From contig CM114271.1 of the NCBI GenBank assembly GCA_050084515.1, positions 28,396,001 through 28,460,000 on the forward strand: a stretch of 64,000 bases of DNA, read 5' to 3'. Shown here piece after piece: positions 12,040 through 52,660 of this stretch. Within the stretch, counting starts at the first letter, position 1, and each line of letters opens with the position of its first letter. The notes under the pieces are model-generated. The model was not told the DNA's origin. It saw only the letters and a program-made list of their open reading frames with translations, and ran no database searches. This DNA comes from Blasia pusilla (taxonomy: Eukaryota). The position numbers and the translations under genes are program-made.

Positions 12040-14877
12040 TCCTCCGTTGCCTGTTGTCGATAGGATTGTAAGATTAAATACATTATTGAATATTGCAAGA
12101 AGACCAAATTTCCAAGAAAGTGATATTAGGAAGTTAAGATTACATAGGAGTTTGAATCGTGTCAGCGATCTTCATACATTGGGTTATATGACAAAGATAT
12201 GCCCATGATGTCATGCTTTACATTGGAAATAAGAAAGGGTGAAAGGGTTAAAGATTAGTGACTCACCATATGGCATGTGTTGTGGCCATGGGAGAATATA
12301 TTTACCCCTCTTGAAATCGTCTCCTCTATTCTTGAAATCCTTGATTTTAGGTGTTGGTCCTAGAAGTCTTCATTTTCTTACACATGCTAGAGCTTACAAT
12401 TATGCGCTTCAAATTGCATCTACTAGAGTGCACGTAAATGAACAAATCGGTGGCATTGGACACTTTAGGGTCCAAGGCGGTATCTATCATTATGTTGGAT
12501 CCCTTACATCTTAATATAGGGGATCATCCCCAATTTTCTCAACTCTACATCCATGATACGGCAAATGAATTGAAGAATCGTGGAAGAGTTATGTCTAGAT
12601 CTTCTGATCTTAATATAGATATTTGGAGAGGGCTACAAGACATGTTACATGAATGCAACCCATATGTAAAGATCTTTCGTCATATGGCATATGAAGCAAG
12701 TGACCTTAATATGCGGATCATCCTCAAGGCAAGTAAGAGAGGTCTTGATGCTAAGCGTTATAACTTACCAATTGCTTCTGAGGTTGCGACTATTTTTCCG
12801 GGTGATGGTAGTGAGCATGTTGACCATCATAATATAATTGTATGACTATATTGAGGAGGAGTGAAGCGTGTATCATACCTCAATGGAGCATATATTCCAC
12901 TATATTTTGTTCTACTATTTATCTATGGTGAAGCAGGTTGGCATCCTGGAATACCCTTTGGGAGGATTGAAGGCCATACAGAATCCCAACGATTGGGCCA
13001 GAATATTCATGAGGAGGGAGATGTGGACCCTTTAGAATATTGGATGGATGGGGAAAGATTTTATGGTGATATTTTTTAGGAAAGAAAAAAGAAGGGTGTT
13101 ACGGCCTTGCAATTTGCATATTTTCGACTTCAAACACGGATTGGAGGCAAAGATGACAATTGCTTATTGCGGTTTGGTCGACTTACTCAAGAATATATGG
13201 TTGATCTCTATGAAACTGTAGAGATGCGATGATTATCAAGGATTTTCTTGAATCAAAGGGAGTTAAGGGTTGAATTATATCAAGATGTAAAGGATGCCAT
13301 GCATCGACATGATTTGGGTAGTCGGAGGGTTGGGAGGCACATTATATTACCTTCTTCTTTTACTGGAGGGCGACGTCACATGCATCAATTATATCAAGAT
13401 GCAATGGAAATTGTAATATATTTGGGTAAGCCGGAATACTTTTTGACTATGACATGCAATCCAAAGTGGGAGGAGATTATATCAGCCTTATCACCTGATC
13501 AATCGGCTATGGACCAACCAGATTTGGTCGAGCGGATTTTTAGAAGAAAAAAGAAAAAGTTGTTAATACTTATCATCAAGAAGCAGATATTGGGACGAGT
13601 TGCAAGATACATCCATGTGGTGGGACTCCAAAAAAGAGGTTTGCAACATGTGCACGTTCTTATTATATTCGGATGGGAGGATAAACCACGTAATATTCAT
13701 GATTATGATCATATTATTTCATTAGAAATCCCTGATCAATCTACCCATCAAGGGTTGTGTTCTACTATTGCTAATTGCATGGTTCATGGGCCATGTGGAC
13801 TATTAAATCCAAATGCACCATGTATGGATAAGGAAACCAAAAAGTGCACCAAAGGCTATCCTAAGGCTTTTGCGGTCAACACTACAAAGACGGAAGATGG
13901 CTATCCAATCTATCGCAGGTAAGGATCCTTTAATCTTGGCTTATCTTTATTATTGCAAGGCATATGATGTAGTTGTAGTATTGGAAAGCATATTCATGAT
14001 TTATTACCGTATTTTTGTAGATTGGAGAATGGGAGGGCAATAATTAAGAGCCGACATTCATCGGATAATCATTGGGTTGTGCCAACAATCCCATGTTATG
14101 CATCCTCTTCGATTATCATATTAATCTCAAAATCAAAACAAGTGTTTATGCCATCAAGTACTTATATAAATATGTCTACAAGGGGTCTCATGCGGTGTCA
14201 TTTAAGTTGTCAAAGGACACGGATACATCCAATGCAATTGACGTTGTTGACGAGACAACATTATATCTTGATGCGATGTATGATTTAGATCTTGAGATTG
14301 TGCTACTTCATTGATGTGATGCATAATATTCTATTTCTTATCCATCATGTTCATTCTCCTTACTTGAATACTTGGAATTTTTATTTTTCCAGATAGATAT
14401 CTTCTTCAGAAGCATGTTGGCATTTCTTCAAGTTTTCTCTACATGCTGAACTTCAAAGTATTGTGAGATTAGTAGTTCATCTTCCGGACCAATAAATAAT
14501 CTACTTCAATGATGTTCACACTCCTCAAAATATTTTGCAACTAAATAGAGAGACAATTATGACCCAATGGTTTGCAACCAATCTATTTGACTCCACTGCT
14601 TGATAATATCTATATGTAGGTTTCCCTTCATATTATCGTTGGAGTAACAAGAGATGGATTCGTAGGGTAAGAAAATGTAATGATTGTGGCCATCCCATTG
14701 GGTGCTAATACCTTACTCATCCAGGTAAGAACTTAAAAGTTCTTAATATACATTTTTTTTATATACCAGCCTCACCAATTTTCTTTTATATATGCATAGA
14801 TGAGCTAATTTTTCTCACTTTTTCATAGGTGAAAGAGAACGACATAGGTTGAGATTACTCCTCCATCATGTTCAAGG
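12040..14877 (+). pseudogene. Helitron B RepHel, N-terminal/Rep part
   Basis: ICP*CHALHW...GMCCGHG Zn finger; YFLTMTCNPKW; LQKRGLQHVHVLI (HUH); KYLYKYVYKG (Y2 motif); GT-AG intron at about 13919-14020. Confidence 0.9.
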
Positions 14878-15481
14878 GAAAACACATGGTCCCCAAATTG
14901 CACCAAACATCGAGCAACCAGCGAGCTGCCCCTTTAAGCTCTCTCACCCTCTCATTCTCTCTTTGTAAAATAAGGTGAAATCTCTCACAACACCATAACT
15001 CTCAAATGTGTGCACTCTCACATGTCGCTCTCAATGACAAACCAAACCCACTCTCCTAACGAGAGCCTTGGGCTACACACACAAGGCAAGCAAGACCATA
15101 CCTCCCCCGCCTTATGCCAAGAGGTTCAATAAAGAGAGAATGAGCTCTCAAGCTCTCTTTCCTTGAGGTATACCCCTTCCCTCTCCCAAGCTCTCTCCAT
15201 GGTAACCTATGCTCCCAAGTCACCTCCTTGGATCTTGACTTGATGTAGGAGGTCAATGGCCACTTACCAGAAATAGGAAGTCAACCATATACTCAAAATG
15301 GTACTTATCTAAAATAGTAAGTGCCTCAATATGGCTCCGAATGAGCCGAAATGAAGGGAAAATCTGCTCTCTCAGGTTTCTCAGGGCCTTAATAGGTCAT
15401 CCTCAATCTCCAGAGTCTGTCCCCCACTACTCGTGAAGGCGCCCTACTGGATCTTACTAATCTATCATAAAATTCGTGATA
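14878..15481 (-). repeat. 3' terminal repeat A (LTR-like) of Gypsy copy 1
   Basis: Direct repeat of about 22805-23410 and homologous to 39605-40090 and 52661-53147. Confidence 0.85.
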
Positions 15482-15483
15482 GT

Positions 15484-15592
15484 TGTCGTGCGCATACACA
15501 TCGCTGTCAGCAAACACACACATAAATACGCACGATCCCATGCTCACTCATGGCATCCAAACAACGAGACAAGAAGTACCAAAATATCTCCA
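15484..15592 (-). repeat. Short TG...CA repeat B of Gypsy copy 1, preceded by purine tract AGGGGGGCGA
   Basis: Homologous to 52533-52658 and 53148-53258; joined to repeat A by AC. Confidence 0.7.
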
Positions 15593-15774
15593 ATCGCCCC
15601 CCTAGGTGGTGGTTAGGTCCCTCTAACTTCAGATAACCATATATCCCTATCTACCATGACATACATTTCTCGGACGCTAAGAGCAAGAAGGCCGAGTGCT
15701 CATATGGCTCCATCGTTAGTCGCCTTTTTGTCATCCATATCACAGACACAAGTCGGAATGTAGAACTACCTACT

Positions 15775-17170
15775 CTATGTACATCTGGGACACATCCATT
15801 GTCCTTGAGAAACCCTAGTGAGAGATGGCGTCAAGCATGCCATATGCCATCCTCTCGAATATCCATCAAAGACTAGCATAGTGGTTGCACCATTGGTCGA
15901 ACCACACAACATACATTGCAAGCTTGCAAGAACTACTAATAGGCTCGGATCAACTATTCCGTCAATGTTCGGGAGCTGACACGGTGCACAATTATGCATA
16001 TGGTCCTTCCAAACCAAACCATCGCATCCCTCCAATAAGAGAACACCTGATGGCAAAACCTCACGCACTCTCAAGATGGTGCACCCTACAGTCACATCCA
16101 ACGTTGTGGGTGTCGTGTGATGCAAGTAGACATAGTTTCCTAATGAAACCTCCGGATAGAAGGTCGATAACCATCCCCCCAAAAAGTTGCATACCTCAAT
16201 GTATCCCGATGCTGTGCAATCGCCAAGTTCTCAAACGCCATGGGGATCACTCTCTGGAACAACTCAACCCTCTATGAACATGCTCCCATCCATACATCAG
16301 CGTCATCAAGGTTCAACACCTCACCAACATCTTGACGAATAGCTGCAGGTAAATCGGGCTCACGACCATAAAGTAGCAAGTGCGATGAGAAAGATGCTAA
16401 GGATGCCTGCTTGCCAAATCTGTATCCCATCGCCAACCACGACAATTGAAGGTCCCAATCTCCTCGGTGACCTCTCTTCAAGCCATATTTGGGTAATCCT
16501 CTCTTCACCATCTGCACAACCCTCTCCACTAGTCCATCCACCTTAGGATGATCTCACAAAGTGGTGCGGTGGTCGATTAGTGCCTAATCACACAAGGCAT
16601 GAAACTCCCCGCGAAACTCTATACCTTGGTCTGTCAGTACCTCAGCTGGTGCACCGTAATGACTCATGACTCAATCTAGGAAGGCATATGCTACTCCCTC
16701 ATTTGCTTTGTCAGGAAATGCCACCAACTCTATCCACTTCAAGAAGTGCTCGACCATCACCAACACATAACGACTATGGCGCTCCGTCAAAGGCACAGAT
16801 CATGCAAAATCCAAACTCCATCTATAACCTAAACCCATGATCGAAAGTGGATGCAATTGTGAAGTGGGAGCATTGAATGATGCTCGGACTCGATCACACA
16901 CCATGCATGTGGCAACAAACTACTGAACGTCAGTTTGCATGCCTCGCCACCAATATTGAATCTGGAGCAAGTTGTACGTCCGCTTCACTCCAAAATGATC
17001 CAACTCCTCATGGGCATGACGCACCAAACATGCTCTCTGCAAAGGATGAGGCACTACATGCACTCTAGTATTCTCCCACACTCACAACACACATGTCCTC
17101 TTCCACCGGAACCGTCTGGCTCGCTGTAGGATCTGATCCCGCTCTCTAGCATCCATTGTGCTCGCGATGC
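15775..17170 (-). pseudogene. Gypsy integrase with C-terminal PHD finger (copy 1)
   Basis: GLVERVVQMVK, WDLQLSWLAMGYRF, then CMLC...DGYSRGWHMACLTPSL...WMCPRC. Confidence 0.85.
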
Positions 17171-17199
17171 TGCCTGTACATCAACATAGCTCCAAGCCC

Positions 17200-18290
17200 C
17201 AACATGATCCAATCAGTATGCAACTCTGATCGGTCTCCTTAATACAGGCGCAGAAATCAATCTATCTTTGAGCAACGAAAATGCTCTCTCCTGCTCATCT
17301 CCCTAGTGCCACTCCTGATCCACCTTGGTCAACAAGGTTAGCGGCTTCGCAAGCGAACTGAAACCCTTGACGTACCGTCGATAGAAGTTCATCAATCCCA
17401 TGAATGGACAAACTCGACTCATATCTTTGAGCCATGGAATGCATGAAATAGCCTCTACCTTCGTCTGCTGCACACCAAGGCCCCCTAGGTATATCGTATG
17501 ACCCAGGTACTTAATTTGGTCGTAGAAGAACTTGCACTTGCCTGGATGTAGCTTCAAGCCATGTAACTGCAATCGTCGAAACAACTCCTCTAGATGTCGC
17601 TAATGCTCCTCAACTGTGGTGCTAAAGACTACGATGTCATCAATATAACATGTAGCAAATCCAAACCTGGCAAGAACCTATCCATGATCCTCCGAAACTC
17701 ACCTAGGGCGTTCTTTAACCCAAATGGTAAGAACCGCCAGTGGTACAAACAATCCTTCCCGTGAGGATCGATGCCCCAAAAAGCCGTCTTCTGTCTGTCC
17801 TCCAATCTGATAAGAAAATGATGGTATTCAGCCCGAAGATCTGACAAACTGAAGACCTTTGTATGCCCAATAGCATCAAAGATCTCCTCGAGGGTGGGCA
17901 TGGCATAACTATCAGACTTTATTTGCCAATAGATAGGTCAATAATCTGCACACATCCGTCTATCTGTCTAGTTGCCATGCACATACTTCTTGGCGGGCAT
18001 GACAGTAGCAGATGCATACTCTCCATGTGACATCTCCACTGGTCCTGCTTCAACTAAGTCCTTGCTCATATTTTGAATCAGAGCCCTCTCTATGTCATTA
18101 TGCCTGTAGAGTAGTCGGAAGATTGACGTGTCAATCGACAACTCAATGCGGATCCCTGGATCCTTCAGCGTACCAAAATCCTGCATGCTAAATGCAAAAA
18201 AACTCTTATAACTCCTCAAGAATTGATGTATTCGGCCGTGCTCTAGCGATCTCCTCCTGTCATCTTAGGGCCCATATCTGGCTCCCAAGT
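17200..18290 (-). pseudogene. Gypsy reverse transcriptase (most of RNase H deleted), copy 1
   Basis: YASATVMPAKK, MPTLEEIFDAIG, FLPFGLKNA, LKLHPGKCKFF...YLGH, FYRRYVKGFS. Confidence 0.9.
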
Positions 18291-18647
18291 CTCCATCGTG
18301 ACTATAGTAGGACTCTCTGGCGCGGGTGTAGGTGGTTGCTATGGTGCAATCCCGTCTCGAACAATGAAACTCGATTGCTCTTCTACTGCCAACTGCAAAA
18401 TATGATCTCCATGTGCAGTACCCAGGACCACGCTCGATACTGTGGCTACCATCTGAAGGCGTACCTGCAAAAAATCCCAAGAAGTCCAACGATGTCTCTC
18501 ACAATCATACCTGGTGTATCGATCTCCTCAGGTCTCGCCCCTAGCCATTGCCTCAACCGTCTCGGTAGGCATGGGGCTCACCAACGCAACTATAGTGATC
18601 TGTCGCATCCTCAAACGACGTTGCTCATGTACTCCTAAGATGAAAAT

Positions 18648-19586
18648 CTATGTCAAGCATTTCAGGTCCATTGCATGATCCAAGACATCACGTTGTGATA
18701 CCTCTGATAATGACGATATTGCCGTCACTCCTATGGGGAATCCCATTGCTCGCTCTCGCTCATCGACATTGGGCTCCACCAACCTCTGTACTTGGTCATC
18801 CCAAACCAAGCCATGTCCAGCATCCTTGAATGCATAGGAAGCGGGAAAACTCACCAATGTGGGAAAGGCTGCTCGTGGCATGCCAATCCTGTTGACCACA
18901 ATCAATGGCGATCGATCATTGTGCCTCATTGGCTGTGATCGACGGCATGGATCTAATATACAATCCACCAACAAATTGGAGGGATGCTCCACTCTCGCAT
19001 AAGCCCTCCGCAATACCTCATGTGGCACCAAGTTGGTCCACCAAAGATGCAGGAGATGTGCTCGTGAATCCACACTCGCCGCATCCAACAAAACTTCCAG
19101 ACCAATCCATGTGCGCGCACCTGATGTGCCCTCGTCACAACATGGGAACTCGAATCACCCAAAATCGGCATATTCTCCAAAATGTATGCTAGAGGACGAG
19201 ACTGATGCTCTTGCAAGTGTCGCAAGATCCGCATCATCTCCCAAAACAACCTGGACTTAGAGTGCTTATCCGCTATCCCGTCCAACACTTGATTGGCCAT
19301 GTTAGGGCCAATCAGCAATGACCAAGTCTATGGTCCCTAACTGCTCCAAGTCCTGCAACCCCACCAATGAAATGCCCCTCGATAAGGAACTCTGGTAATC
19401 CTGAATGGCGCACGCAGACAACAAGTCTAGAAAACGGAGGCGTAACTGCGCCATATGGTAAAGTGAAGCACGCCTCGCAACATCATCAATCTCCACATAC
19501 AGGTACTGTTGCACGCGCACTCCAGCTTGCAAAACAACAACTAACCCAATGCTGATCCCTCCAAAGAGATCCATCACCCGAATACC
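18648..19586 (-). pseudogene. DNMT3-like C5-cytosine DNA methyltransferase domain in Gypsy pol (copy 1, frameshifted)
   Basis: VMDLFGGISIG (motif I), YLYVEID (II), IDLVIADWP (IV, damaged), YILEN (VI), SRAH...WWTNL (VIII), ERERAMGFP (IX), VLDHAMD (X). Confidence 0.85.
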
Positions 19587-19997
19587 TTGCTCTAGGATGC
19601 ACCACACAATCGGGGTGGTGTCAAAAGGGGTCATAGCAGCACTCCTTGCTACATGGGGTTCCTCGGACCTGTCATACTCTGGTGCAAACGTCTCGCTCCA
19701 CGCGGTCTGCACATGCTTAGTGGCTAAGCATCAAAGCTCCTCAGTCGAGCCCCAAAGCGGCACCTCTCCTCCACGGACTCATGCAGCTACCATGACACTC
19801 CTCTAGAATAGGAGTATCCTTTGCATGGATAGGTCCCTCAATCAAATCACTAAGCCAAGTGATGGCACTACTATATGGTGCTAAGGTCGCCATCTCTCTT
19901 GGCCGTCGATCGATACTGCACGTGTGAATCAAACGGGTAATGAGCTAAGGCATCCATCACATGACTTCCATCCTAGTCTATAGGACGCTGACTCCTC

Positions 19998-20330
19998 CTA
20001 GTAATCCAAGGAAAATCCCATCGGGTATAACACTTCTCCACCAACCAAGACGTTGTAAGACTTTTCATAAGTCACTATCGCCTTGGCTCGCATCAGTGTC
20101 TCATTTGTAGGAGCTCTCGGGTGAATCCTCACCATGACCTCTTGTCGGGTGATATACTTGGTGGTATTTGCTCCACCAAAGGATGTGTGTATCCGGAATG
20201 GACAATGCTCCACATTGGCTCTCGTCAAGCCCAATCCTCTGAATGATGCTTTCCCCAACATTAGGGGTTGCGCTCCTGAATCCAACAAGACGAGCTGCGG
20301 ACTAAAAGCTCTACCTCTTAGACTCACCAA
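19998..20330 (-). pseudogene. Retropepsin aspartic protease (copy 1)
   Basis: VLLDSGAQPLMLG active-site motif and downstream YNVLVGG motif. Confidence 0.8.
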
Positions 20331-20849
20331 CTAGAAGACCTCTCTCCATGTATCCAACAACATAACACCAAGAGAAGCCATGGCACACTCTATCACGGGT
20401 TTAGTCGGCATCTTCGCCAACCAAGCAGCCGTAGCTTGCCATGAATCTGACATGGACGACCCGAGCATCCGCTCCAAGGGCAGGTCCATCACCTCCCCTG
20501 CAATCACCTCTGAACATGATGCAGGAACTCCAACTCCATGGTCACACAACATAGCGGCCAGCTAAAAAACCTCGGCGGGCGTACCTCCCAACGTCGTAAC
20601 ATTGGATGCACAAAATAAAGGAGCGCGGGACACAACAATGGCCTCCCCCAACAACGTGCTCAACACATGCTCCTCTTGAGCATCAACAATATGAATCGTC
20701 GTACTTGCTTCTCCCATGGCCCTTTGTGCCTGCACACCAACAACATCAACAACTCTCTGGGAATTGTGATCAGGACCCATTGATGGGGTCCTCATTGCCT
20801 CGAAAAACGTGAAGGACTGAGGAAGCTTGGTCTGTTTCCTAGCTTCTCC

Positions 20850-22180
20850 TCACTGTGGATCCAACTCTACGGCTGCTCCATGCATAATAACTGCGATAGC
20901 CTCCATATGGGCAACCCCGCACATCCAACCAAGATCCTCCATATCTCTAGCGGCTCCATAAGACGTTGATGACACGGATTCGGTATCGGGTAATCTCAAT
21001 ACCATAGCGGCAATCTGCTGTTGTAGCTGTTGTATCTGAGCAGCCATCCCAGCCTCACCTCCGGCATCTCCCTTGATGTATGTAGGTGGTGGGACTCTAC
21101 CTCCTCTTGTCGGGCAACTCTAGCTCCTCGTCCCCCAACGAGACCACTTGGTGCACGTCCCCTAGGCCCACCCAGACCAGCAACTCACTCTGGTGCCTTC
21201 TCAAGCCCTTGGCCCGAACGTAACTTATGGTGTAAACTGAAATACCATGTACGTGTGTGACCATACCTGTGAAAATATTCACAATAATAACCTCCTGGTG
21301 TAGCACCATCTCCTCCTCCATGGTGAGGCACATGTCCATGACTCTGATGAGTGCAGTCGCGTTGATGATGGGCTCCACCACATGACCAACGAGTTATCAT
21401 AGGCGGCTGCTGCTGAGCCACATATGAAGATGCAGGTCTCTATGGCACGAGCTCCCGGTATTCTCCATGCGCTTGCAGTGCCACAATCGACCTATCTCGG
21501 AGTCCACATTGCTGCATTGGTGGAGGCAATCGCGATTGCTCTCGCCTAGAACCCATGGTGGCTACGCTCTCCTCCGCCATGTTGCGCTCTATGTTCTTGG
21601 CGGTCCTAAAAACATCTCTCAATGTAGGGGAGGTGTTCATAAGAAGCATCCCCTCCCGCACTTGTGTCCGTAGGGTCTAGTGCAGCAGCGCGTACCGTGA
21701 CTGGATAGGTTGAGTCTTTGTCATCCCCTGAGTGACATTGATCAATCGGCGCAAGCAAGTGTAAGCCTCATGCAAACTCTCACTCGGGCATCTCTGGAAG
21801 TCGTGGATGCTCCTAAACTTCTCCTTCCGTACCCCTTGGTAGCTCGCCCTCAACTCAACGAAGAACTCAACCACGTGGTTGAACATGGGACGAATCCGAC
21901 TAGACGGTGCAACTGCTCCAGTGCGAGTGACCCCTCCGTAACATCACTATTGGAAGAGGAAGTAGCCTCTCTTGACTCCTCCTCCTCATCTGGGAATGGC
22001 TCCGTCCATGACATATAGTGTGGATCATAGTATAGTCGTCATGCCTCAATCTCCTGGGCATATGTGTGGGAGAACTCATCGTAATTGTCAATGGGCGCCC
22101 CCTCTAAATGCTGAAACATATCGTTTCATGCCTTAAACGGGTTGAACTTTCTAGAGTTCCTAGCCCGTTGTGAGTCACAC
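20850..22180 (-). pseudogene. Gypsy gag with zinc knuckles (copy 1, 5' part deleted)
   Basis: WSCGGAHHQRDC and YCEYFHRYGH knuckle remnants; homologous to about 45530-46900. Confidence 0.7.
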
Positions 22181-22804
22181 CAGCCAAATGGGGCTCTAAG
22201 CGGTCGTAGGCGACAACAACGGTCGACGATCAAAGGTCGACGGTGGATGGTGACGATGGACCATTGATAATGACGATGGACCATCGACGGTGATGGTTGA
22301 CTATTGATGGCGGACCGTTGAAGGTGAGGGCCGCCGCCGCCGCGGCTGCTGGTTTGAATAATTTTACCCTCAAAATCGCCTAACAATGGCAAATCTGCAA
22401 AATTGGCCATAACTTTCTACTCGAAGCTCCAAATTGTGCACCATCTATTGCATAGCGTGCATAACTTTGCCATCTACGATGGTCTCAAATAATATTTTGT
22501 AATCGGACCTTTGTATAAAAATTTACTGGGATTGTTGCAAGTCCCAACGTCTCTTCTCCTACGGAAATTTTGGCAGTGCTTACGCGCTGATTTCTCTCCA
22601 AAAAAATTAAAAACCTGTGAAAATAAAAATCAGCAAGCTACACGGTGCTCATGAGAGCATCGGTATGGGGAAACCCACCCCCATACTTAATCCCTATCAG
22701 AAATTGGGCACCGCTTCCGCGTGCCACTCTCTCACACAAAAAATCAGAACACAAACATCAAAACATGCGGCTCTTGCTCCCATGAGCACTCCTATCATCC
22801 ATGA

Positions 22805-23410
22805 AGCAAGAAAAATATTCCCCAACATGCACGTAACATCAAGCAACCAGCGAGCTTCCCCTTTAAGCTCTCTCACTCTCTCATTCTCTCTTTGTAAAAT
22901 AAGGTGAAATCTCTCGCAACACCATAACTCTCAAATATGTGCAGTCTCGGATGTCGCTCTCAATGTCAAACTTAACCCACTCTCCTAACGAGAGCCTTGG
23001 GTTACACACACAAGGCAAGCAAGACCATATCTCCGTCGCCTCATGCCAAGAGGTTCAATAAAGAGAGAATGAGCTCTCAAGCTCTCTCTCGTTGAGGTAT
23101 ACCCTTTCCCTCTCCCAAATTCTCTCCATGGTAACCTATGCTTCCAAGTCACCTCCTTGGCTCTTGACTTGATGTAGGAGGTCAATGGCCACTTACCAGA
23201 AATAGTAAGTAGACCATATACTCAAAATGATACTTATCTAAAATAGTAAGTTCCTCAATGTGGCTCCAAGTGAGCCGAAACGCAGGGGAAACCTGCTCTC
23301 TCATGTTTCTTGGGGCCTCTGTAGGTCATCCTCAACCTCCAGAGTATGTCCTCCACTACTCGTGAAGGCGCTCTACTCAATGTTACCGATCTATCCTAAA
23401 ACACGTGACT
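22805..23410 (-). repeat. 5' terminal repeat A (LTR-like) of Gypsy copy 1
   Basis: Begins (A)GTCACGTGTTTTAGGATAGATCGG on the minus strand directly against Helitron sequence; matches 14878-15481. Confidence 0.85.
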
Positions 23411-39604: not shown

Positions 39605-40090
39605 TGTCACGTCTTTTAGGATAGATCGGTGAGATCTAGTAGATTGCCTTTGTGAGTAGTGGAAGACAGGCTCAGTAGGTTGAGGACGACCTATTGAGGC
39701 CCCGTGAAACCTGAGAGAGTAGGTTTCCCCTTCGTTTCGGCTCATTTGGAGCCATATTGAGAAACTTGCTATTTCAGGTAAGTACCATTTTGAATATATA
39801 ATTGATTTTATATTTTTGATAAGTGGCCATTGACCTCCTACATCATGTCAAGAGCCAAGGAGCTGACTTGGGAGAATAGGTTACCATGGAGAGAGCTTGG
39901 GAGAGGGGAGGGGTACACTTCAAGGAGAGAGAGCTTGAGAGCTCATTCTCTCTTTGTTGAACCTCTTGGCATGAGGCGGCGAAGCTATGGTCCCTTGCCT
40001 TGTGAGTGTAATCCAAGCCTCTCATTAGGAGAGTGGGTTTTGTTTGACATGAGAGAGAGTGCATATCTTTGGGAGCTATGGTGTGAGATG
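39605..40090 (+). repeat. 5' terminal repeat A of Gypsy copy 2 (resumes at about 43614 after the LINE fragment)
   Basis: Direct repeat of 52661-53147. Confidence 0.9.
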
Positions 40091-43000
40091 ATCTAGATAA
40101 TGGGCCCCAAACTTGGGTCCCATATAAGACCACCGACAACATTAAGCTCATAAATAAGAATTTCCTAAGACCCCAAGACACAAGATGAGCTCTTCTACAT
40201 CGGTTTAAAAATGAATATAGAGCTTTGTAACCAGCTTCTACTCTCTTTTGCACGCAAAGTGCCCAACTATAATCATTAGAGAAATCGATGCCTAGATATT
40301 TATAACTCTTCACTTGTTCTAATTGTAGACCTTTGTAAAAGAACGAGAACTTGGATCTAGTATCCACTACAATGACTTTAGACTTCTCCATATTAACCTC
40401 CATCTGATTCTCGATATAAAACCTTGCCAAAATGTCAAAGTGTTGTTTTTAACTAATGCCATCACGTGCTAGTAATATGATATCATCTGCATACAAAAGA
40501 GCTTTGATGACAAAGTCCCCAAGCTTGACACCTTCAATATCACATTCCTCCAACCAATTTTAGATATCATTTATGAAAACTCCAAATAGAGTAAGGGAGA
40601 GAGGACAACCTTAAATGACTCCGATGGTACTCAAGATCTCTTGAGTTTGTGAACCTTTGATTTTGGCCCGAACGGAATAGGTTAACGTGGCCACGACTGC
40701 TAGGAGATTTGGTGGTACTCCAATGGCTTGCAGCCTTTCCCATAAGAGCTTACGAGGTACAGTATCAAAAGCTTTCTTGAAATCGATGAAGCCGCAAAAT
40801 AAAGCTTTTCCATTGCCCTTAGATTTCTCCCATAAAACACGCAAGGCCAAGATATGGTCGATGGTGTTGTATGTTGGGCAAAAACCAGCTTGGATCCGTG
40901 CTCTCTTTTGGAAAGACTCTCTCTATGCGCTCAACTTTGACTCCACAAATTTCCCTAACAACTTGGCAAAAACACTACCCACCATGATAGTGCGATAGTT
41001 TGTCAGCAAGTCCTTCCTTCCTGATTTGAGAATAGAAACAATCTCCCGTAGCGACCAGGTTGAAGGAAAACCATAGATAGAAGCATCACCCAATACTTTG
41101 GTGAGGATCGGTCCAATACAATCTCCTCCCCACTTGAAAAGTTCAATAGAAAGACCATCCAAATCCTCACATTTACCATTTGCTAATCTTCTTAGTTGGG
41201 TTATCACCTCTCCTTTAGAGAATAAGCCAGGTATTCCCTCACAACGTGGCATAGATGTAGCGTCGGGGAAGAAATAGATCTTTTCGGCAAAAGATACCAA
41301 AGACTTGGGATCAAGAGTAGGTTTTGAAGACCGTACTACTAACCATCTCCAAAATGATTTGGGGTCCTCGTGCAGCTCCCTTGTTAAGGACTCTTGCTTC
41401 CGCTACAAGAAAGCTCGTTTCTTAGATTTTACCAAGTCTTTGCAAAGGCTCGTCATAATAAACCGACTTTAGAGATCCAAAGATTTATCAACTGATCTTG
41501 CCATTGCTTGCTTGCATTCATAGTCAAACCACCCATTACAAGGCAACCTCCTAGCACTTCTATCCCTATGCCGCGAAAATAACTTAGATGTAGTGTTGTT
41601 GAGCAATTCGGTTAGTTGCAAACTTGCCGTGTGTGGATCTCCGCTCCATACAATGCGAGTCAAGAGTTCTTGTAAATGTAGCGTATAAAGATCATTTTTA
41701 CCAGGATTTAAGGTTAAAAAATGCTCTGTCAAAGGATTTGTAGAAAGATCTGAAGAGATTCTAGACCACAAAATATCCTCCTTTTCTTTGAGAAGAGGAG
41801 AAGTCAAGGAATCACTGAATTGGGTAAATTGAGCAGTACGGGTGCGAGCATTGAAATCCTCAACTAGAAAGACTTCACCTTTGCTTTGATATTTGAGAAC
41901 ATTCCCAATAAGTTAATGGAACGGTTGACTTAGATTGTAAGTGCGTGTTGAGTAGATAGGCATGGACAGTGGTGCAAAATAACAAACTGCCAAATAACAA
42001 TAAGATCCCCCAACCAAACCAAGATGTAGCCAATGATATTGGCCCCTGATATCTTGATCTTCTAGATGTATGAGAGATAGAAATTGAGACCTGATGAAAG
42101 GAGCAATACCACCATAATCCCTTCATGCCCGCATCGCGTAGATGAGCAATAAAACTTGCTTCTTGAGCCTCTTTGACCTTTGCAAGCTCCTTTCTCCTAG
42201 CTTCAACTTGTAGAGGTGTAAGATCAAAATCCAACCATATCCTCTGTCCTTTGAGAATGGCCTTGTTAGCCATGGCAATATCACGTTGAGTTTGATCAAC
42301 AAACTTAACTAGAATGGCACGAGGTTGTATTCCCGTTTCCCCAACACGGAAAGCTTGAGCCAAGTCCGGGTTATGAACATGAAGTGTATCAACCAAGAAC
42401 TTGGTGACAACACTCTTCACCTATTCGCTCTCTATTTTTGGCAAACCTGAGATTATCACATTCTTTCTACGGGCAATTTGGTTTTTCTTTTCTATCTCTT
42501 GCTCTTGACAGAAGAGATATGAGCAACCTTTGTAAGATTTCATTTTTTACTTCTAAAGTTTTAACAACCTTATGCAATCCAGGACTATAAGGAGTAGTCG
42601 CTAATGATGATGCCTTCTCTTGAACATCCGCAACAGATTTGGAAAGATCGAGCATCACACTAGAACTATCTTTCAACACTTTCTTGAAAACCTCTTGGGT
42701 TGCCTTTAATTCTCGGATTTGAATATGTGCAAGGTTTAATTAAGAAGTTTGTACCTTGAATTATTGTTGAAGCTCTTTCAATTTGTGCAAGACCACTTGC
42801 ACTAGATTCAAGATTTTGTCTTGAGTAGTCATCATGTAGTCGACTTCACTACATCCCAGATATTCCACGACCTCCAATAAAGTATAACCAAATCTCCAAC
42901 ACCATACAACTTATGCTCTAGAACGTACTTGAAATTCTTATAGCTATGACGCCTCTTGACACTCCACGTTGTCTCAAAATATTAGCTTCATATCACACTC

Positions 43001-43613
43001 CACCTTAAAGATATGGCCTCCGCAAGATTTAGATCTTAAATCGTAAAATCTAGAAGAGCAAAAACTCAAATCTCGCACAACTTCGTGTGTGTAATTGGGT
43101 TGTGCTTAAAATTTTCAGGGCTAGGATGCCTCTTTATATTCCATGTTTTCTCAAAATATCAGTTTCACATAACACTTCATCTTAAAGATATGGCCTGCGT
43201 AAGATTCAGATCTAAAATCCTCAAATCTAGAAGAGCAGAAATTCAAATCTCTCACAACTTCGTGTGTGTAATTCAATTGTGTTTGAAATTTTCAAAGCTA
43301 AGACAAATTCTTACATTGTAAGTTTACTCAAAATCTTAGCTTCATTTGACACTCCACCTCAAAGATATGGTCTCTGTAAGATTCGGATCTTAAATCCTCA
43401 AATCTAGAAGTGCATAATCGCAAATCTCTCACAACTTCGTGTGTGTAACTCCGTTGTGCTTGATATTTTCAGGGCTAGGACACTTCCTAATTCTCCACGT
43501 TTCTTCAAAATCTCAGCTTCATTTCACACTCCACCTCAAAGATTTAGCCTCTGCAATATTCAAATATGAAATCCTCAAATCTAGAAGAGCAGAAACTCAA
43601 ATCTCTCCTCAAA
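40091..43613 (-). mobile_element. Non-LTR retrotransposon (LINE) fragment: 5' tandem repeats, ORF1, partial APE endonuclease, RT; 3'-truncated
   Basis: ORF1-like RAILVKF...IWLDFDLT; EDFNAR endonuclease motif; NYRTI, QAGF, FIDFKKAFDTV, GCPLSP, YADD, YKYLG. Confidence 0.9.
42960..43613. repeat. Tandem repeat, period about 178 bp, about 3.7 copies, at the LINE 5' end
   Basis: Anchor (C/T)TCAAAAT recurs at about 42973, 43150, 43328 and 43504, with shared AAATCTAGAAG and ACAACTTCGTGTGTGTAA blocks. Confidence 0.9.
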
Positions 43614-45269
43614 TGTAGAGAGAGATTGGATCTTACTTTACAAAGAGATAATGAGAGAATTGAGAGAGTGAGAGACCTTCATGGGGGAGTTCGCTGGTCA
43701 TCTGTTTTTTTTCAGGTTGGTGACTGTGTTCCCTCTTCAGCGGCTCATGGGAGTGCTCACCAGGGCAAGGGCTGCTTTGATTGTTCTTTGCATTTGCCGA
43801 TTTTTCGTATGGAAGAATGGCACGCGGAAGCGGTGCCCAATTTCTGATAGGGATTGATTATGGGGGCGGGTTGCCCCATGCCAGTGCTCTCAAGAGCACC
43901 ATGCAGCTTATTGATTTGTATTTTTACAGGTTTTATATTTTGGTTGGGAGAAATCATCGCGGAAGCGCTCCCGAATTTTTTGTAGGAGAAAGAGACATTG
44001 GGCTTTACGACAGTCCCTATCAGTTTTTACTGGAATGTCCAATTCCAAATATTTTTTGACGTTGTCGTAGATCGTGAAGCTATGCACATTGTGCATCAAA
44101 CAAACTCCAATTTGGGGTTGCGAGTAAAAAGTTATGGTCAATCTTGCAAAACTGCCATTGCTAGGCGATTTTTAGTGTTAAATTGTTCAAACCCTAAACC
44201 AGCCGCCACGCCGTCATAATCACGGTCAACGGTCAACCGTCACCATCACCATCAACGGTCAACCATCACCATCAAAGGTCCACCATCCACGTCGCCGTTT
44301 CCGTCGCCCAACGTTGCTCAGAGCTGCATTTGGCCGTTTTCCACCCTTTGGTTGACATTGCCGCCATTACGAAGTGGAGGGTCTTTCACGACCACCGTTG
44401 ATTCTTTGACTTGCGCCGCCACCACGTACTTTGATTTGGCCGCCTCATCATCAAAGTTTCGTCATCAACCAGTGATGGTATATGATCTCCGATTATGGTG
44501 TTTGAGTTTTGATTTCATGCTACTATGTTGTGATTGATAGCCGCTCGACGAGGATCGAGTACCGTGCCATGACGCCTGTAGCCGCAACGCGCCGCAAATT
44601 TCCGCACCGTGCCGCTTGTGGCCGCACTGCACCATCTTGATTGCGGAGCCGCACCGTCATTGTGGAGCAGAGTATGGGTTTATTGTTGATTGAGGAGGGA
44701 ATGCCGCCGAGTGCCGTATCCCACCATCAAGGATCGTGCCATTTGGTGCCGCTTGCAACGCCGCACTATTCCGCTGGAACCGCACTGTCCATCAAGGAGT
44801 TTTAAGTAGTGTTGGTACGGGAGGAGTATGACTTGCTGATTGGAGGAGTTGACTCCACGACTGAGTTGGGATCAAGATTTGCAGTTGCTCAAGAGCAACT
44901 GCAAATTCTGGTCCTTTACCCTGTACTTGTGAGGGATTCTGGGATTTGGGTAGTTTATTTGGGGATATTGGGTGTGTGGATGCTGAGAGCATCATTTATG
45001 TATGTGTTTTAGGGGACATAGACCTGTATGGGGTGTCCAGAGTTGAGGGTAGGTTGTCGATGAGATGATAGTCTGGTCGATTTGCCGCACCACGCCGCTT
45101 GTTGCCGCACGTTACATGTCTCGGGGAGGGAGAGTGTAGATCGAGTGCCGCATGTTTGGGATGAGTGATTGAGGGATTACTCGCGAGGTTGAGAGTGATC
45201 TTGTGAGAGGGGCACGAGGGCCATCACAACCTCCTTTCAAGATTTTGAGAGCCGAGGTAGTGGACCTAA

Positions 45270-47400
45270 GAGTAGCTCCGGCGGGTTTACCCGGAGTGGT
45301 ACGAGGTTTCGAGGATCTCCACGTGAGAGACCATATCGATTTCCTTCTGTGTTGTCTTCAGACGAGGGAGAGCATGTAGAGGAGTTTGTGAGCACATCGC
45401 CACACATTGTGAGTGGTCCTACCAGTTGGGCGTATGAGATGGACGGTCGGGGTAGAGGACCGCGTAGGTTTTCAAGTGCAGTAGGCACGATTAAGTTGCA
45501 CGATTTCATAGCAAAGTTTAGGAGTTTGTGCGACTCCCTGCGGGCCAGGAACTCTACAGAGTTCAACTCGTTTATAGAATGGAACGGTATGTTCCAGTAT
45601 TTAGAGGGGCGCCCATGAACGATTACCATGAGTTCTCTCAGAGATATGCGCGTGAGATCAAGGCGTGGAGGCTCTACTATGACCCACATTATGTGTCATG
45701 GACAGAGCCATTCCCTGATGAGGAGGAGGAGTCAGGAGAGGCTACTTCCTCTTCCACTAGTGAAGTTTTAAGAGGGGTCACTTGCACGGGAGCTGTTGCA
45801 CCGTCTAGTTGGGTTCGTCCCATGTTGAACTCTGGGGTAGAGTTCTTTGCTGAGTTGAGGGCGAGCTACTAGGGGGTATGGACGGAGAGGTTGCGGAGCA
45901 TCCACGACTTCCACAGGCGCCCGCGTGAGATTTTGCATGAGGCTTACACTCGCTTGCGCTGGTTGATCAACATCACTTAGGAGATGACAAAGGCTTAGGC
46001 TATCCAGTCATGGTACGCGATGCTAGACCTGACCCTACGGACACGGGTGCGGGAAGGGGTGCTTCTTATGAACACCTCCCCTACGTTAATAGATGTTTTG
46101 AGGACCGCCGGGAACATTGAGCGCAACATGGCGGAGGAGAGCGTAGCCACCATGGGTTCTGGGTGAGAGCAGTCACGATTGTCTGCACTACCTGTGCAGC
46201 AACGTGGACTCGACTGTGGCACCACGAGCTCAGGGAGGATACGAGGAGGCCGTGCCACAGAGACCTGTGCCTTCATATGCGGCTCAGCAACAACCGCCTA
46301 CTATTACTTGTTGGTCATGTGGTGGAGCCTATCATCAGCACGATTGCACTCGTTACGGTCAAGGATGTGTGCCTCAGCATGGAGGAGGAGATGGTGATGC
46401 ACCAGGAGGTTATCAGTGTGACTATTGTTAGAGGTATGGTCATACACGCGCCAGGTGTTTTAGTTTACATCATGAGTTACGTTCAGGGTCGAGGGCCAAA
46501 GAGGGCACCAGAGCGAGTAGCCGGTCTAGGTGGGCCTAAAGATCGTGCACCAGGTGGTCCCATTGGGGGAAGAGGAGTTGGAGTTTCCCGACAGGATGGT
46601 GGAGTTGACCATGGAGGAGATAGAGTCCTACCACCTAGACGCGTCGAGGGAGATGCCAAGCGTGAGGCTAGGATGGCTTCTCAGATACATCAGCTATAGG
46701 AGTAGATTGCCGCTATGGCATTGAGAATACCCGATGCCGGATCCGTGGCATCGACATCATATGGAGCAGCCAGAGATATGGAGGATCCTGGTTGGATGTG
46801 CGGGGTTGCTCTGATAGAGGCAGCCGCAGAGTTGGATCCACATCGAGGGGAAGCCAGGAAAAAGACTAGGCTTTCTCAGTCTTTCACGTTGTCTGAGGCG
46901 TTGAGGACCCCTTCGATGGGTCTTGATCAGAGTTCCAGGAGAGTTGGTGATGTTGTTGGTATGTAGGCATAGAGGGCGATGGGAGAAGCGAGTGCAACGA
47001 CTCCTACTGTTGATGCTCAGGAGGGGCATGTGTCGAGCACGTTGTTAGGGGCGGCCACCATTGTGTACCGCGCTCCTTTATTTTTTGCTTTCGATGTTAT
47101 GACGTTGGGGGGTACGCCCGCCGAGGCTTTTTGGCTGCCTGCTACGCTATGTGAGCGTGGAGTTGGAGTTCTGCATCACGTTGAGAGGTGATTGCAGAGG
47201 AGGTGATGGACCTGCCCTTGGAGTGGATGCTCGGCTGTCCACGTCGGATTCATGGCAGGCTGCGGCTTCTAGGATGGCAGAGATGCCCGCTAGACCCGCG
47301 CTAGAACGTGCCATGGCTTCTCTTGGTGTTGTGTTGTTGGATAACCAAGGAAAGGTCTTCCAGTTGGTGAGTCTCGGAGGTAGAGCTTTTAGTCCGCAGC
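45270..47400 (+). pseudogene. Gypsy gag with two CCHC zinc knuckles (copy 2)
   Basis: CWSCGGAYHQHDC and CDYC*RYGHTRARC; fragmented ORFs homologous to copy 1. Confidence 0.75.
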
Positions 47401-47979
47401 AAGTATCACCCGACAGAAGGTCGTGGTGAGGATTTGCTCGGGACATCCTGCAGATGAGTCCGTGGTGCGAGCCAAGGCGATAGTGACTGATGTAGAGTCC
47501 TACGACGTCTTGGTTGGTGGAGCAGTGTTATACCTGATGGGGTTTTCCCTGGACTACTAGGAAGAGTCAGCGTCCTACAGACCATGATGGCAGTCAGGTG
47601 ATGGGTGCCTTAGCTCATTACCCATTCGATTCACATGTGCAATGATCGGCCACGAGAGATGGCGACCTTAGCATCATTTAGCAGTGCCATCACTTGGCCT
47701 AGTGATTTGATTGAGGGACATATCCATGCAGAGGATACTCCCATTCCTGAAACTTCTATGGAGAGGAGTGTTATGGAAGCCGCATCATTCTGTGGAGGAG
47801 AGGTGCCGCAGTGGGGCTCGACTGAGGAGCTTCGACAATTGGCAGATGAGCACGTGCAAACCGCATGGAGCGAGGCGTTTGCACCGGAGCATGACGGGTC
47901 TGAGGAACCCGAGGTAGCAGGGAGTCCTATGATGACACCCTTGGATACCACACCCATTGTGTGATGTACCTCGGAGGAG

Positions 47980-48920
47980 GGTATTTGAGTGTTAGATCTC
48001 TTTGGAGGGATTAGCACCGGGTTAGCTGTTGTTTCGCAGGCAGGAGTGCGAGTGCAACAATACCTGTATGTGGAGAGTGATCATGTTGCGAGGCGCGTCT
48101 CACTACGACATATGGCGCAATTACGCCTACATTTTCCCGACTTATTTTCTGCGTGTGCGGTAGAGAGGTACCAGAGTTCCCTACCAAGGGATATTTTGTT
48201 GCTGGGGGCGCAAGACTTAGACAAGTTAGGCACCATTGATTTGGTCATTGCCGGTTGGCCATGTCACGGCCAATCGAGTCCTGAACGAGGCAACGGGTTG
48301 GCTGACACTCGGTCCAGGTTGTTTTGGGAGATGTTGAGGGTCTTACGGCAGTTGCAGGAGCACCAGTCTTGTTCTCCAGCCTACAATATGGAGAATATAG
48401 CAATCTTAGGAGACTCCAGGTCATGGGTGGTGATGAGTGCTCATCAGGTGCGTGCCTGGATCGGCCCAGCAGTGTTCTTGGATGCGGCGAGTGTAGGTTC
48501 TAGAGCCCATCGCCCGCGTCTATGGTGGACCAACTTGGTGCCCCATGCGGTGTTACGGAGGGCGTATGCGAGAGTGGAGCGCCCCTCCCATTTGTTAGTG
48601 GATTCCATTATGGATCCAGGTCGTCGCTCACAGGTAGTGAGGAACAATGATCGACCACCGTTGACTGTGGTCAATAGGGTAGGCAAGTCGCAAGCAACCT
48701 TTCCCACGTTTGTGAGTTTTTCCGCTTCCTATGCATACAAGGAGGCCGGTCGTGGCTTGGTTTGGGATGATCATGTTCAGAGGTTGGTGGAGCCCAACGC
48801 CGACGAGAGAGAGCAGGCGATGGGATTTCCCACAGGAGTGACGGCAGTACCGAAAATATGAGAGGCATCACTACGCCATGTCTTGGGTCATGCGATGGAC
48901 CTTAACAGCTTGACATGGAT
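47980..48920 (+). pseudogene. DNMT3-like C5-cytosine DNA methyltransferase domain in Gypsy pol (copy 2; 290-aa open stretch)
   Basis: LDLFGGISTG (I), YLYVESD (II), DI (III), IDLVIAGWPC (IV, catalytic PC intact), SRLFWEMLR, MENI (VI), DAASVGSRAHRPRLWWTNL (VIII), EREQAMGFP (IX), VLGHAMD (X, after one stop). Confidence 0.92.
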
Positions 48921-49272
48921 CTTCAACTTGGGAGTGGCTGAGCAGCGTCCGATGAGATCGCGACAGATCACAGCAGTTGCGTTGGTGAGCCCCATGCCTA
49001 CCGAGACGGTGGAGGCAGTGGTTGGGGGTGAGATCCGAGGAGATCGACACACCATGGGAGATCGAGAGAGACATCCTTGGACTTCTTGGGATGTTTTGCA
49101 GGTAAGTCATCAGATGATAGCCACAGCATCGAGCGTGGTTCTCGGCACTGCATGTGGAGGAGACAAGAGTTTGCAGTTTGCTGCAAGAGAGCGCTCGAGT
49201 GTTGTTGTTCGAGACAGGGTTGCACCATAGCAACCACCGATATCCACGCCGGAGAGTCCTACCGTAGTCACA

Positions 49273-50750
49273 ATGGAGACTTGGGAGCCAAATATGGGCC
49301 CTAAGTTGACAGGAGGAGAGCGGCGCCAAATACATCACTTCCTTAGGAGTTATAGGAGCTGCTTTGGGTTTAGCATGGAGGATTTGGGTATGCTGAAGGG
49401 ACCGGGGATCCGCATGGAGTTGTCGAGTAATACGCCGATCTTCCGACGACCCTACAGGTATAGTGATATGGAGAGGGCTTTGATTCAGAGTAGGAGCCAG
49501 GACTTGGTTGGAGTAGGACTAGGGGAGATGTCGCATGGGGAGTATGCATCTGCCACTGTCATGCCCGCCAAGAAGGATGTGCGTGGCAACTGGACGGATA
49601 GGCGGATGTGTGGGGATTACCGACCTATCAATCGGCAGACGAAGTCCGATAGGTATACCATGCCCACCCCTGAAGAGATCTTTCATGCGATTGGTCATGC
49701 AAAGGTTTTCAGTTCATTGGATTTGCAAGCCGGATACCATCAGCTGCCTATCAGATTGGAGGACATGAAGAAGACGAAATTTTGGGGCATTTATCCTCAC
49801 GGGAACGATTGTTTGTACTAGTGGGGGTTCTTACCATTTGGGTTAAAGAATGCCCCAGCTAAGTTTCAGAGGGTCATGCATAGGATCTTGGCTGTTCTGG
49901 ATTTTGCTAGGTGTTATATTGATGACATCATAGTCTTTAGCGCCACGATTGAGGAGCATGAGCGACATCTAGAGGAGGTGTTTCGACGATTGCAATTACA
50001 TGGGCTAAAGCTACATCCAGGCAAGTGCAAGTTCTTCTACGACCATATTGAGTACTTGGGTCATACAATATACCCGGGGGCCCTTGGTGTTCAGCAAACA
50101 AAGGTACAGCCTATCTCACGCATTCCACGGCCTACAGATCTGATCCGTGTTCGCGCATTCATGGGATGGCCAAACTTCTATCGGCGGTACATCAAGGGAT
50201 TCAGTTCGATTGCGAAGCCGCTGACCTTGCTGACCAAGATGGATCACGAGTGGCATTGGGGGGATGAGCAGGAGCGAGCATTTCAGTTGCTCAAGGACAG
50301 GTTGATGTCCATGCCTATCTTGAGGAGACCAATCAGGGGGCGTCCTTTCAAGTTCCACACAAATTGGAGCATGTTGGGGCTTGGTGCGGTGCTCACCCAA
50401 CATGATGATGAGGGTAGAGAGTTTGTGGTGGCTTATGCTAGCCGCTCAAACAATGCTGCAGAGGCAAAGTATAGCTCGTATGCGGATGAGTGCTTGGCTA
50501 TGGTGTGGGTTGTCGCGCATTTCAGGTGTTACTTATTCGGCAATCCCTTTACCATGATCACTGATCATCAACCACTGAAGTGGTTGATATAGTCCGACAA
50601 GCTTACGGGGAAGCTTGCGAGATGGGCTCTGTTGTTGCAGGAGTATGATTTTCATGTGGTACATAGACCTGGGATGCTCAACCAGGATGCAGATGGATTG
50701 AGTCATAACCCATGCCCGATTCAACGAGATATGATTGGAGCTCGATAGCA
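49273..50750 (+). pseudogene. Gypsy RT and RNase H (copy 2)
   Basis: RMCGDYRPIN, LDLQAGYHQ, CYIDDII, YLGH, VVAYASR, ITDHQPLKWL. Confidence 0.95.
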
Positions 50751-50930
50751 TAGAGAGAGTGATGAGGAGTTAGTGCCACGATGGCATACGTAAGCCTATT
50801 TAGGCATGTTGGCTATGGAGAGCCAGAGTGTGGAGACTTCGATGGCGAGGTCTAGCGGAGAGTCCTTGGATCCCGAGGCTAGTGAGGAGACGACAGATGG
50901 CTGAGATATATTCATGATGATGGAGTAGTC

Positions 50931-52344: not shown

Positions 52345-52532
52345 AGGAGATATTAGGTACGTTTGGATTTTGACTTTAAATGTGATATGGATGACATGAA
52401 GGCGACTAACGATGGGCCCATATGAGCACCTAACCTTCTTGCTCTTAGCGTTTGAGAGATGTATGTCATGGTAGGTAGGGATAGATGGTTATCTGGAATT
52501 AGAGGGACCTAACCACCAGCTAGGGGGGCGAT

Positions 52533-52658: not shown

Positions 52659-52660
52659 AC

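Follow-up and report, generated by a model that had tools for sequence, protein, structure and literature searches.

Why would a transposon carry, and keep, a DNA methyltransferase? Hosts fight transposons chiefly by methylating cytosines, and an element that keeps a de novo methyltransferase of its own under selection is for that reason unexpected. The question is raised by positions 18648-19712 (minus strand) of a 64,000-nt stretch of Blasia pusilla DNA (contig CM114271.1, positions 28,396,001 to 28,460,000; the whole stretch is called the window here). This interval is a DNMT3-type cytosine-5 methyltransferase domain, lying between the protease and reverse transcriptase regions of E1, a dead long terminal repeat (LTR) retrotransposon of the Ty3/gypsy group. 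A second dead element, E2, lies 30 kb away. That the interval is the DNMT3-type domain of E1, and that E1 and E2 belong to the same family, can be held with considerable confidence. Its recurrence in the same architecture in liverwort and Sphagnum proteins shows that the domain itself is fixed in the element and inherited vertically with it.

The methyltransferase domain in E1 and E2

The interval spans motifs I to X of the E1 methyltransferase. When the window was searched by tblastn, the Calypogeia fissa protein P0001 gave a three-piece match to 20084-18423 (frames -3/-1/-3, E 9.7e-127), and the DNMT part of a second relative, P0024, matches 19712-18651 (E 3.7e-37). The relatives find two DNMT loci in the 64 kb and only two, the other being in E2. 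E1 and E2 can be aligned over the whole of their internal regions, with 81-83% identity, and the order of domains is the same in both (from stop-to-stop open reading frames [ORFs], Pfam and tblastn): gag, protease (PR), DNMT, reverse transcriptase (RT), RNase H (RH), integrase (IN), and a PHD finger. Pfam matches RVT_1, RT_RNaseH_2, Integrase_H2C2, and rve in E2; in 13 E1 ORF fragments it finds weak RVT_1 matches and one PHD match only. The protease has no Pfam match, and is recognised by its LLDSGA motif in E1 only.

The two LTRs of E1 are 90.3% identical across 590 bp (window self-comparison), and the E2 LTR parts at 39605-40099 and 52661-53155 are 90.9% identical. Direct LTRs therefore flank PR, RT, RH, and IN in that order, as in Ty3/gypsy elements. 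A G-rich tract is present, though about 125 bp ahead of the 3′ LTR and not directly next to it. Beside this polypurine-like tract begins the best conserved part of the E1/E2 alignment, the non-coding stretch 52454-52650 before the 3′ LTR, with 93% identity vs. a mean of 82%.

Selection was estimated as Nei-Gojobori dN/dS (nonsynonymous to synonymous substitution rates) between homologous E1 and E2 codons, skipping stops and gapped codons, with 95% bootstrap intervals. The DNMT domains (344 aligned codons; 79.7% nucleotide and 72% residue identity) give 0.25 (0.18-0.35). This is close to the values for RT-RH (0.30, 0.21-0.42; 344 codons) and integrase (0.19, 0.12-0.28; 260 codons), as well as the integrase C-terminus with its PHD finger (0.32, 0.21-0.53; 202 codons). 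The linker after DNMT gives 0.79 (0.46-1.57; 106 codons), and wrong-frame controls for DNMT and RT give 0.83-1.50 (344-345 codons). Since the DNMT ratio resembles those of RT-RH and integrase and is far from those of the wrong frames, selection maintained the domain during the family's active phase: purifying selection on DNMT was about as strong as on RT and integrase. Because both copies have decayed neutrally since insertion, the ratio in the active phase must have been lower than the one measured; subtracting half of each LTR divergence would bring it to roughly 0.1, if the LTRs are assumed to be neutral.

The low ratio, together with the same domain order in Marchantia, Calypogeia, and Sphagnum proteins, supports the view that the methyltransferase is not a one-off capture. 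The original prediction had claimed as much: that the minus-strand element carries the same methyltransferase as the second copy, at the same position between PR and RT, and that the domain was propagated by retrotransposition rather than picked up once as a gene fragment. The tblastn matches and common domain order, the ratios above, and the LTR patterns described below all agree with it. It had also described the two copies as clearly diverged, with different lesions and different insertion sites, which the identities above and the comparisons below confirm. It had further taken two copies within about 30 kb as a sign of a high-copy family, which they may be.

Table 1. Positions of the two elements and their main features in the window
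Feature	Position	Strand	Remarks
E1	14850..23410	-	Degenerate Ty3/gypsy LTR retrotransposon, gag-PR-DNMT-RT-RH-IN-PHD; from LTR pair, Pfam, tblastn, colinearity with E2
E1 3′ LTR	14850..15481	-	Local alignment to 5′ LTR
E1 RT, remnant RNase H, integrase, C-terminal PHD finger	15781..18234	-	Pfam, tblastn; PHD finger 15915-15781
E1 stop between gag-PR-DNMT and RT-RH-IN-PHD parts	18341-18333	-	TAG CAA CCA; TAG at 18339..18341
E1 DNMT3-like domain	18549..19589	-	Homologous to E2 47977-49017; tblastn, codon alignment, motif coordinates
E1 out-of-frame stretch in DNMT	19110..19265	-	About 50 codons, from 2-bp deletion at 19264 to 2-bp insertion at 19112-19113
E1 catalytic Cys codon, motif IV	19302..19304	-	TAA; TGT in E2 at 48262-48264
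E1 protease ORF	19998..20330	-	Contains LLDSGA; ends at TAG 20000-19998
E1 5′ LTR	22783..23410	-	Local alignment to 3′ LTR; ends read by eye; followed by TGG
E2	39605..53259	+	Second family copy; 5′ LTR split by LINE-like insertion 40100-43613
E2 DNMT3-like domain	47977..49017	+	Core ORF 47989-48861 open; TGA 48859-48861 removes motif X
E2 stop between gag-PR-DNMT and RT-RH-IN-PHD parts	49228..49236	+	TAG CAA CCA
E2 PHD finger, integrase C-terminus	52201..52341	+	PF00628, E 3.7e-9
E2 3′ end	52535..53259	+	B1 52535-52660, A2 52661-53155, B2 53152-53259

Relatives and their domain layouts

A word-index search of longer proteins gave 31 relatives, the best of them from Calypogeia fissa (64% identity), with 16 clusters from Marchantia polymorpha and two from Sphagnum. 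A search among proteins of near the same length gave 129, adding Marchantia paleacea, Riccia sorocarpa, and further Sphagnum species; identities here reach at most 68%, or 65% among matches covering at least half of the query. The two word searches together contain at least 18 separate 90%-identity clusters named Marchantia polymorpha. Overall, the named hosts are M. polymorpha, M. paleacea, R. sorocarpa, C. fissa, three Sphagnum species, and Closterium. An exhaustive HMMER search of cluster representatives gave 1616 matches at E≤1e-3, 565 at E≤1e-10, and 139 at E≤1e-30.

Layouts were assigned to 181 proteins by blastp with E2's own domains. That of the window, gag-DNMT-RT (with gag and/or RT flanking), is found in about 20 of these, Marchantia and Sphagnum proteins included, and a Closterium sp. 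NIES-54 protein (P0135) has the order DNMT-RT-RH-IN. RT-RH-DNMT-IN-PHD is the commoner layout, with RT or RH upstream of DNMT in 57 of the 181 (76 if DNMT-IN forms are counted), and 83 proteins showed DNMT alone. The order gag-PR-DNMT-RT is present among Marchantia, Calypogeia, Riccia, and Sphagnum relatives. Elements of the commoner layout (e.g., P0024, P0026, and P0045) share with the window's family a DNMT3-type domain, the RT/RH/IN family (44-46% identity to E2), and a C-terminal PHD finger, but their DNMT lies between RNase H and integrase, rather than between protease and RT.

On a FastTree phylogeny of 132 DNMT domains (the 131 of 181 relatives that cover the domain, plus E2), the layouts require a single change. 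Likewise, one branch parts them in a quick IQ-TREE tree of 84 labelled rows (Shimodaira-Hasegawa-like approximate likelihood ratio test [SH-aLRT] 96), where E2 falls within a 13-row clade with support of 100, all of the window's layout. These trees are unrooted, with no host DNMT3 outgroup, and either one acquisition followed by a move or two acquisitions will fit them.

The domain may thus have entered the Gypsy lineage twice, once at the PR/RT position of the window's type and once between RNase H and integrase (the commoner type). Besides the placement of the two layouts on either side of a single branch, the lower identity between types for DNMT (about 35%) than for RT or IN speaks for this. 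Both types have the same unusual PHD finger after the integrase, however, which fits one ancestral element, and a single split in an unrooted tree is equally well explained by one acquisition and a later move. A double entry appears doubtful on this evidence, with a substantial chance of being right nonetheless.

The PHD finger itself has as its best PDB matches the PHD fingers of CHD4, PHF12, and KDM5, several of which read unmodified H3K4. Pfam finds no chromodomain at the integrase C-terminus, where the PHD finger stands in its place, and the family is accordingly not assigned to the chromoviruses. An origin of the finger from a DNMT3 ADD domain was considered but not supported, as no DNMT3 ADD is among the 60 PDB matches listed. 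By reading histone H3 tails, it might steer integration.

What kind of methyltransferase?

The E2 core (47989-48861, 290 residues) matches PF00145 with 28.2 bits, against a curated cut-off of 22. Its closest solved sequences are DNMT3C, DNMT3A, and DNMT3B (E 1.6e-9 to 4e-6), with M.HaeIII at 1.8e-3 and DRM2 at about 0.09. Motifs I, IV (Pro-Cys), VI (Glu-Asn), VIII, and X, as they are named for the DNMTs, occur in unpermuted order, unlike those of DRM (codon alignment, motif coordinates). An AlphaFold2 model of E2 47989-49017, made from a 42-sequence alignment with X at the one TGA, has a predicted local distance difference test score (pLDDT) of 93.0 and a predicted TM-score (pTM) of 0.91. In a Foldseek search of the PDB with this model, all 31 of the 31 matches listed were DNMT3A, B, or C (best E 3.2e-18; TM-score by target 0.74-0.82 for isolated domains). 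An ESM Atlas look-up returned generic DNA_methylase clusters only. E1 is assigned to the DNMT3 type through its residue identity to E2 and its tblastn match to P0001. Of 30 residues nearly invariant in the family, E2 retains 28 and E1 23.

A second alternative accepts this relationship and questions the function: the domain could be an inactive or non-DNA-methylating passenger, for example one that binds nucleic acid or acts on RNA. By Pfam, neither PWWP nor ADD occurs as a partner domain in the ORFs neighbouring the E2 DNMT. In addition, a yeast assay of a Gypsy-borne DNMT3 domain from the alga Klebsormidium detected no methylation, a result its authors call inconclusive (de Mendoza et al., 2018, PMC5890265). 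On the other hand, at least 90% of the 131 full-length relatives, and of the 42 aligned sequences, retain the catalytic Cys, the ENV-type Glu, and the AHRxR..WTN block, and the predicted fold superposes on DNA-bound DNMT3A and DNMT3B. A passenger role is therefore considered improbable.

If the domain is instead, as we prefer, a working part of the element in its active phase, the enzyme might methylate DNA of the element itself, freshly synthesised or freshly integrated, as de Mendoza et al. proposed (PMC5890265).

Decay of the two copies

Neither of the window's copies can make an active enzyme now. In addition to the stop at its catalytic Cys codon and its frameshifted stretch (Table 1), E1 has stops in DNMT at 19268-19266 and 18650-18648, and is missing two conserved Arg of the AHRxR block. 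E2 has stops at 47962 and 47986, before motif I, as well as the TGA at 48859. Relative to E2 50395-50942, E1 is without 547 bp at the RNase H/integrase junction, while E2 is without 136 bp that hold the protease active site in E1. There are 27 indels in a MAFFT alignment of the two internal regions.

Over 1981 aligned codons, 28 in-frame stops are found in E1 and 17 in E2; three are common to both, where 0.24 would be expected by chance. The lesions are thus mostly private to each copy. The 39 private stop codons are mostly C>T/G>A changes, including six CAG>TAG, six CGA>TGA, four TGG>TAG, and three TGG>TGA. CpG observed/expected is 0.67-0.77 in E1 and E2 vs. 0.48-0.69 in their flanks. The dominance of C>T/G>A among the private stops and the CpG ratios are as expected for DNA that was once methylated.

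Shared stop codons and expression

The first of the three shared stops is the normal pol terminator after the PHD finger. The second is a TAG at a homologous codon about 70 codons past the end of DNMT and 13 codons before the conserved Met-Glu-Thr-Trp-Glu-Pro that opens the RT part, with DNMT and RT in the same frame in both copies. Its surroundings, TAG CAA CCA, fit UAG-CAR-YYA, given as the type I leaky-stop context of plant viruses in PMC5382211. In seven gag-PR-DNMT gene models from liverworts, the projected end falls at residues 392-412, about 2-22 residues from the stop at 414, and gene models that run on into RT skip the stretch around the TAG.

The conserved TAG suggests expression in two parts. 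Gag-PR-DNMT would be the main product, with the enzyme as its C-terminal part, and RT-RH-IN-PHD would be reached by read-through of the UAG in its CAR-YYA context. A wider possibility is a distinct branch of Gypsy elements in bryophytes (and Closterium), characterized by a DNMT in an abundant Gag-PR product, a programmed UAG-CAA-CCA read-through gating RT-RH-IN, and a PHD finger replacing the chromodomain. As a whole, this proposal is tentative, and somewhat less likely to be right than wrong.

The third shared stop is of a different kind. It is a TAG in the protease-DNMT linker (E2 47558-47560, E1 20000-19998), replacing the Trp of a conserved DYW that is Trp in the Marchantia and Calypogeia homologues, and either arose in each copy by its own TGG>TAG change, in parallel, or came down to both as a defect of their common ancestor. 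If the latter, both copies might descend from an already defective master, moved in trans, in which DNMT was carried along but not selected in this sub-lineage. The common TAG upstream of DNMT suggests this, as does the finding of two shared stops besides the terminator, against the expected 0.24. However, the dN/dS ratios of 0.19-0.32 downstream of that TAG, in DNMT, RT-RH, IN, and PHD, require selection after the two lineages split, and TGG>TAG arose privately four times in E1 and E2, making a parallel hit plausible (at a rough estimate of about 0.1). Descent from a defective master is therefore an unlikely explanation, on a par with a passenger role.

Several points weigh against the reading preferred here, of a family that kept DNMT under selection and expressed it ahead of a leaky stop. 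In the source DNA, the evidence for a family consists of two copies within a single 64-kb window. None of the three E1 DNMT ORF fragments has a Pfam match when taken alone (0/3), so that the identification of E1 rests on homology. A dN/dS ratio between two dead copies blends selected and neutral time. With three shared stops, one of them at a conserved Trp, a shared stop can be a common defect or a parallel hit. The conserved Met 13 codons beyond it makes re-initiation an alternative to read-through. Finally, there is the negative, if inconclusive, yeast assay mentioned above.

Separate insertions

E1 and E2 arose by separate retrotransposition events, from diverged members of the family. E1 interrupts a Helitron (Helitron_like_N at 13233-13922, E 5.5e-41), and a second Helitron copy aligns, at 1905-2472, to both sides of it. 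E2 splits the RT of a Copia element (RVT_2, E 6.9e-30), whose reading frame (...LYADD / VLITRSS...) continues across the whole of E2. There is no clean 5-bp target-site duplication; E2 is flanked by ...ACGT and ATCGT... in the otherwise continuous Copia frame. A window self-comparison found no homology between the flanks of E1 and those of E2, such as a segmental duplication would have left.

The LTRs give the same answer. In an alignment of all four, 23 of 26 two-against-two sites group them by element, two by position, and one the other way. Identity within elements is 0.896 and 0.910, and between elements 0.850-0.863; the two copies differ by about 18-20%, and the members of each LTR pair by about 10%. 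Duplication after insertion would give the opposite pattern, so that a segmental duplication is excluded. Gene conversion between the copies was also considered and rejected, as 150-bp stretches have an identity of 82 ± 5.5% and no identical run is longer than 42 bp.

The last alternative, that a single insertion was copied by a segmental (inverted) duplication into E1 and E2, making the second copy uninformative as to the family, could draw on their separation of only about 30 kb and the two internal in-frame TAG codons they share besides the terminal stop, but can be practically dismissed given their unrelated flanks, their different hosts (Helitron vs. a Copia RT with its frame continuing across), LTRs that sort by element, a between-copy divergence greater than that within LTR pairs, and the absence of conversion tracts.

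The mobile elements around E1 and E2 have some features of their own. The window contains two diverged Helitron copies, one at 1360-4454 (Helitron_like_N at 2911-3399), and one at 12407-14849 and 23411-25733, the latter being that split by E1. There are also two Copia elements with gag_pre-integrs and RVT_2 domains, at 35333-38911 (plus strand) and at 39286-39604 and 53260-53924 (minus strand), of which the minus-strand one is split by E2 in its RT. The insertion in the E2 5′ LTR, on the minus strand, is like a long interspersed nuclear element (LINE), with an RVT_1 match of 28.5 bits, just below the cut-off. Its ends carry a duplication-like repeat of 10-12 bp, and it contains three to four tandem units of about 178 bp at 42925-43607.

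The 3′ end of E2 is unusual as well. After the first ~495 bp of the LTR comes B2, which repeats over 108 bp, with 92.8% identity, the sequence immediately upstream of the E2 3′ LTR, and which abuts the intact Copia flank. The LINE-like insertion sits at the LTR position where the 3′ LTR changes to B2. E1 has plain LTRs without a terminal B, and no mechanism was found for the B1-A2-B2 end of E2. Repair after insertion was rejected as the source of B2: the Copia frame is continuous across E2, and B1 and B2 have diverged from one another as much as the LTRs have.

Comparison with known systems

DNMT3-bearing elements were known before from one charophyte alga and from dinoflagellates, and the window, together with the Marchantia, Riccia, Calypogeia, and Sphagnum proteins, indicates that they have persisted in land plants. 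A 2026 preprint has as a class name "streptophytes (Gypsy-DNMT3)." Full-text literature searches, with subscription journals outside their scope, found no paper on liverwort or moss Gypsy-DNMT3 elements, on the integrase PHD finger, or on the DNMT/RT stop. The range of the elements in bryophytes, the conserved TAG-CAA-CCA stop that parts DNMT from RT, and the integrase-borne PHD finger are therefore possibly new.

The host enzymes DNMT3A, 3B, and 3C are the best sequence and fold matches of the family domain, and share its normal motif order. Identity to them is about 20%, however, and the family domain is without PWWP or ADD and forms part of a transposon polyprotein. For annotation, copies of this kind account for the surplus "DNMT3-like" gene models of bryophyte genomes, which are transposon ORFs rather than host enzymes.

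SymbioDIRS-Dnmt3 of Symbiodinium, as described in PMC5890265, likewise has a DNMT3 domain within a retrotransposon polyprotein, and has an A-coding-B-A-B layout of its repeats. It is a DIRS element with a tyrosine recombinase, however, whereas the window's family has a DDE integrase (Integrase_H2C2, rve). In the chromoviruses, with a chromodomain after the integrase, and reportedly in the arthropod Copia-MBD elements (PMC6673714), a chromatin-reading module is also attached to a retrotransposon protein. Here, the module is a PHD finger (PF00628), and it occurs together with a DNA methyltransferase.

The closest published system is KnitGypsy-Dnmt3 of Klebsormidium nitens (de Mendoza et al., 2018, PMC5890265), described as having an intronless DNMT3 domain in the Gypsy Pol ORF, a Ka/Ks below 0.2, and DIRS-like A-coding-B-A-B repeats. 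Both it and the window's family are Ty3/gypsy LTR elements with an intronless, non-rearranged DNMT3 domain colinear with the polyprotein, and both show purifying selection on that domain (Ka/Ks < 0.2 there, 0.25 between the two dead copies here). The A-coding-B-A-B order is also seen at the 3′ end of E2 (B1 and B2 being 92.8% identical), but not in E1, with its plain LTRs. According to the review file of that paper, DNMT in KnitGypsy-Dnmt3 is in one ORF with RT and RNase H, whereas in the window it comes after PR and upstream of RT, with the TAG between them. DNMT and RT share a frame in E1 and E2, and would make up a single ORF if the TAG is read through. The main text of PMC5890265 contains no mention of a PHD finger on the integrase, which E1 and E2 both have. 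The hosts differ as well: an alga there, while here the best named relatives are in liverworts and Sphagnum (50-65% identity), and the name Klebsormidium is absent among the relatives from the protein searches. The contrast with KnitGypsy-Dnmt3 is drawn from its published description.

The proposed self-methylation is directly testable in land-plant laboratory models, and the DNMT/RT stop and the integrase PHD finger provide two hypotheses, on dosage and on targeting respectively. If these prove correct, the family would be a transposon equipped both to write and to read chromatin state, one on which selection still acts in land plants and whose layout is unlike that of the published algal type.

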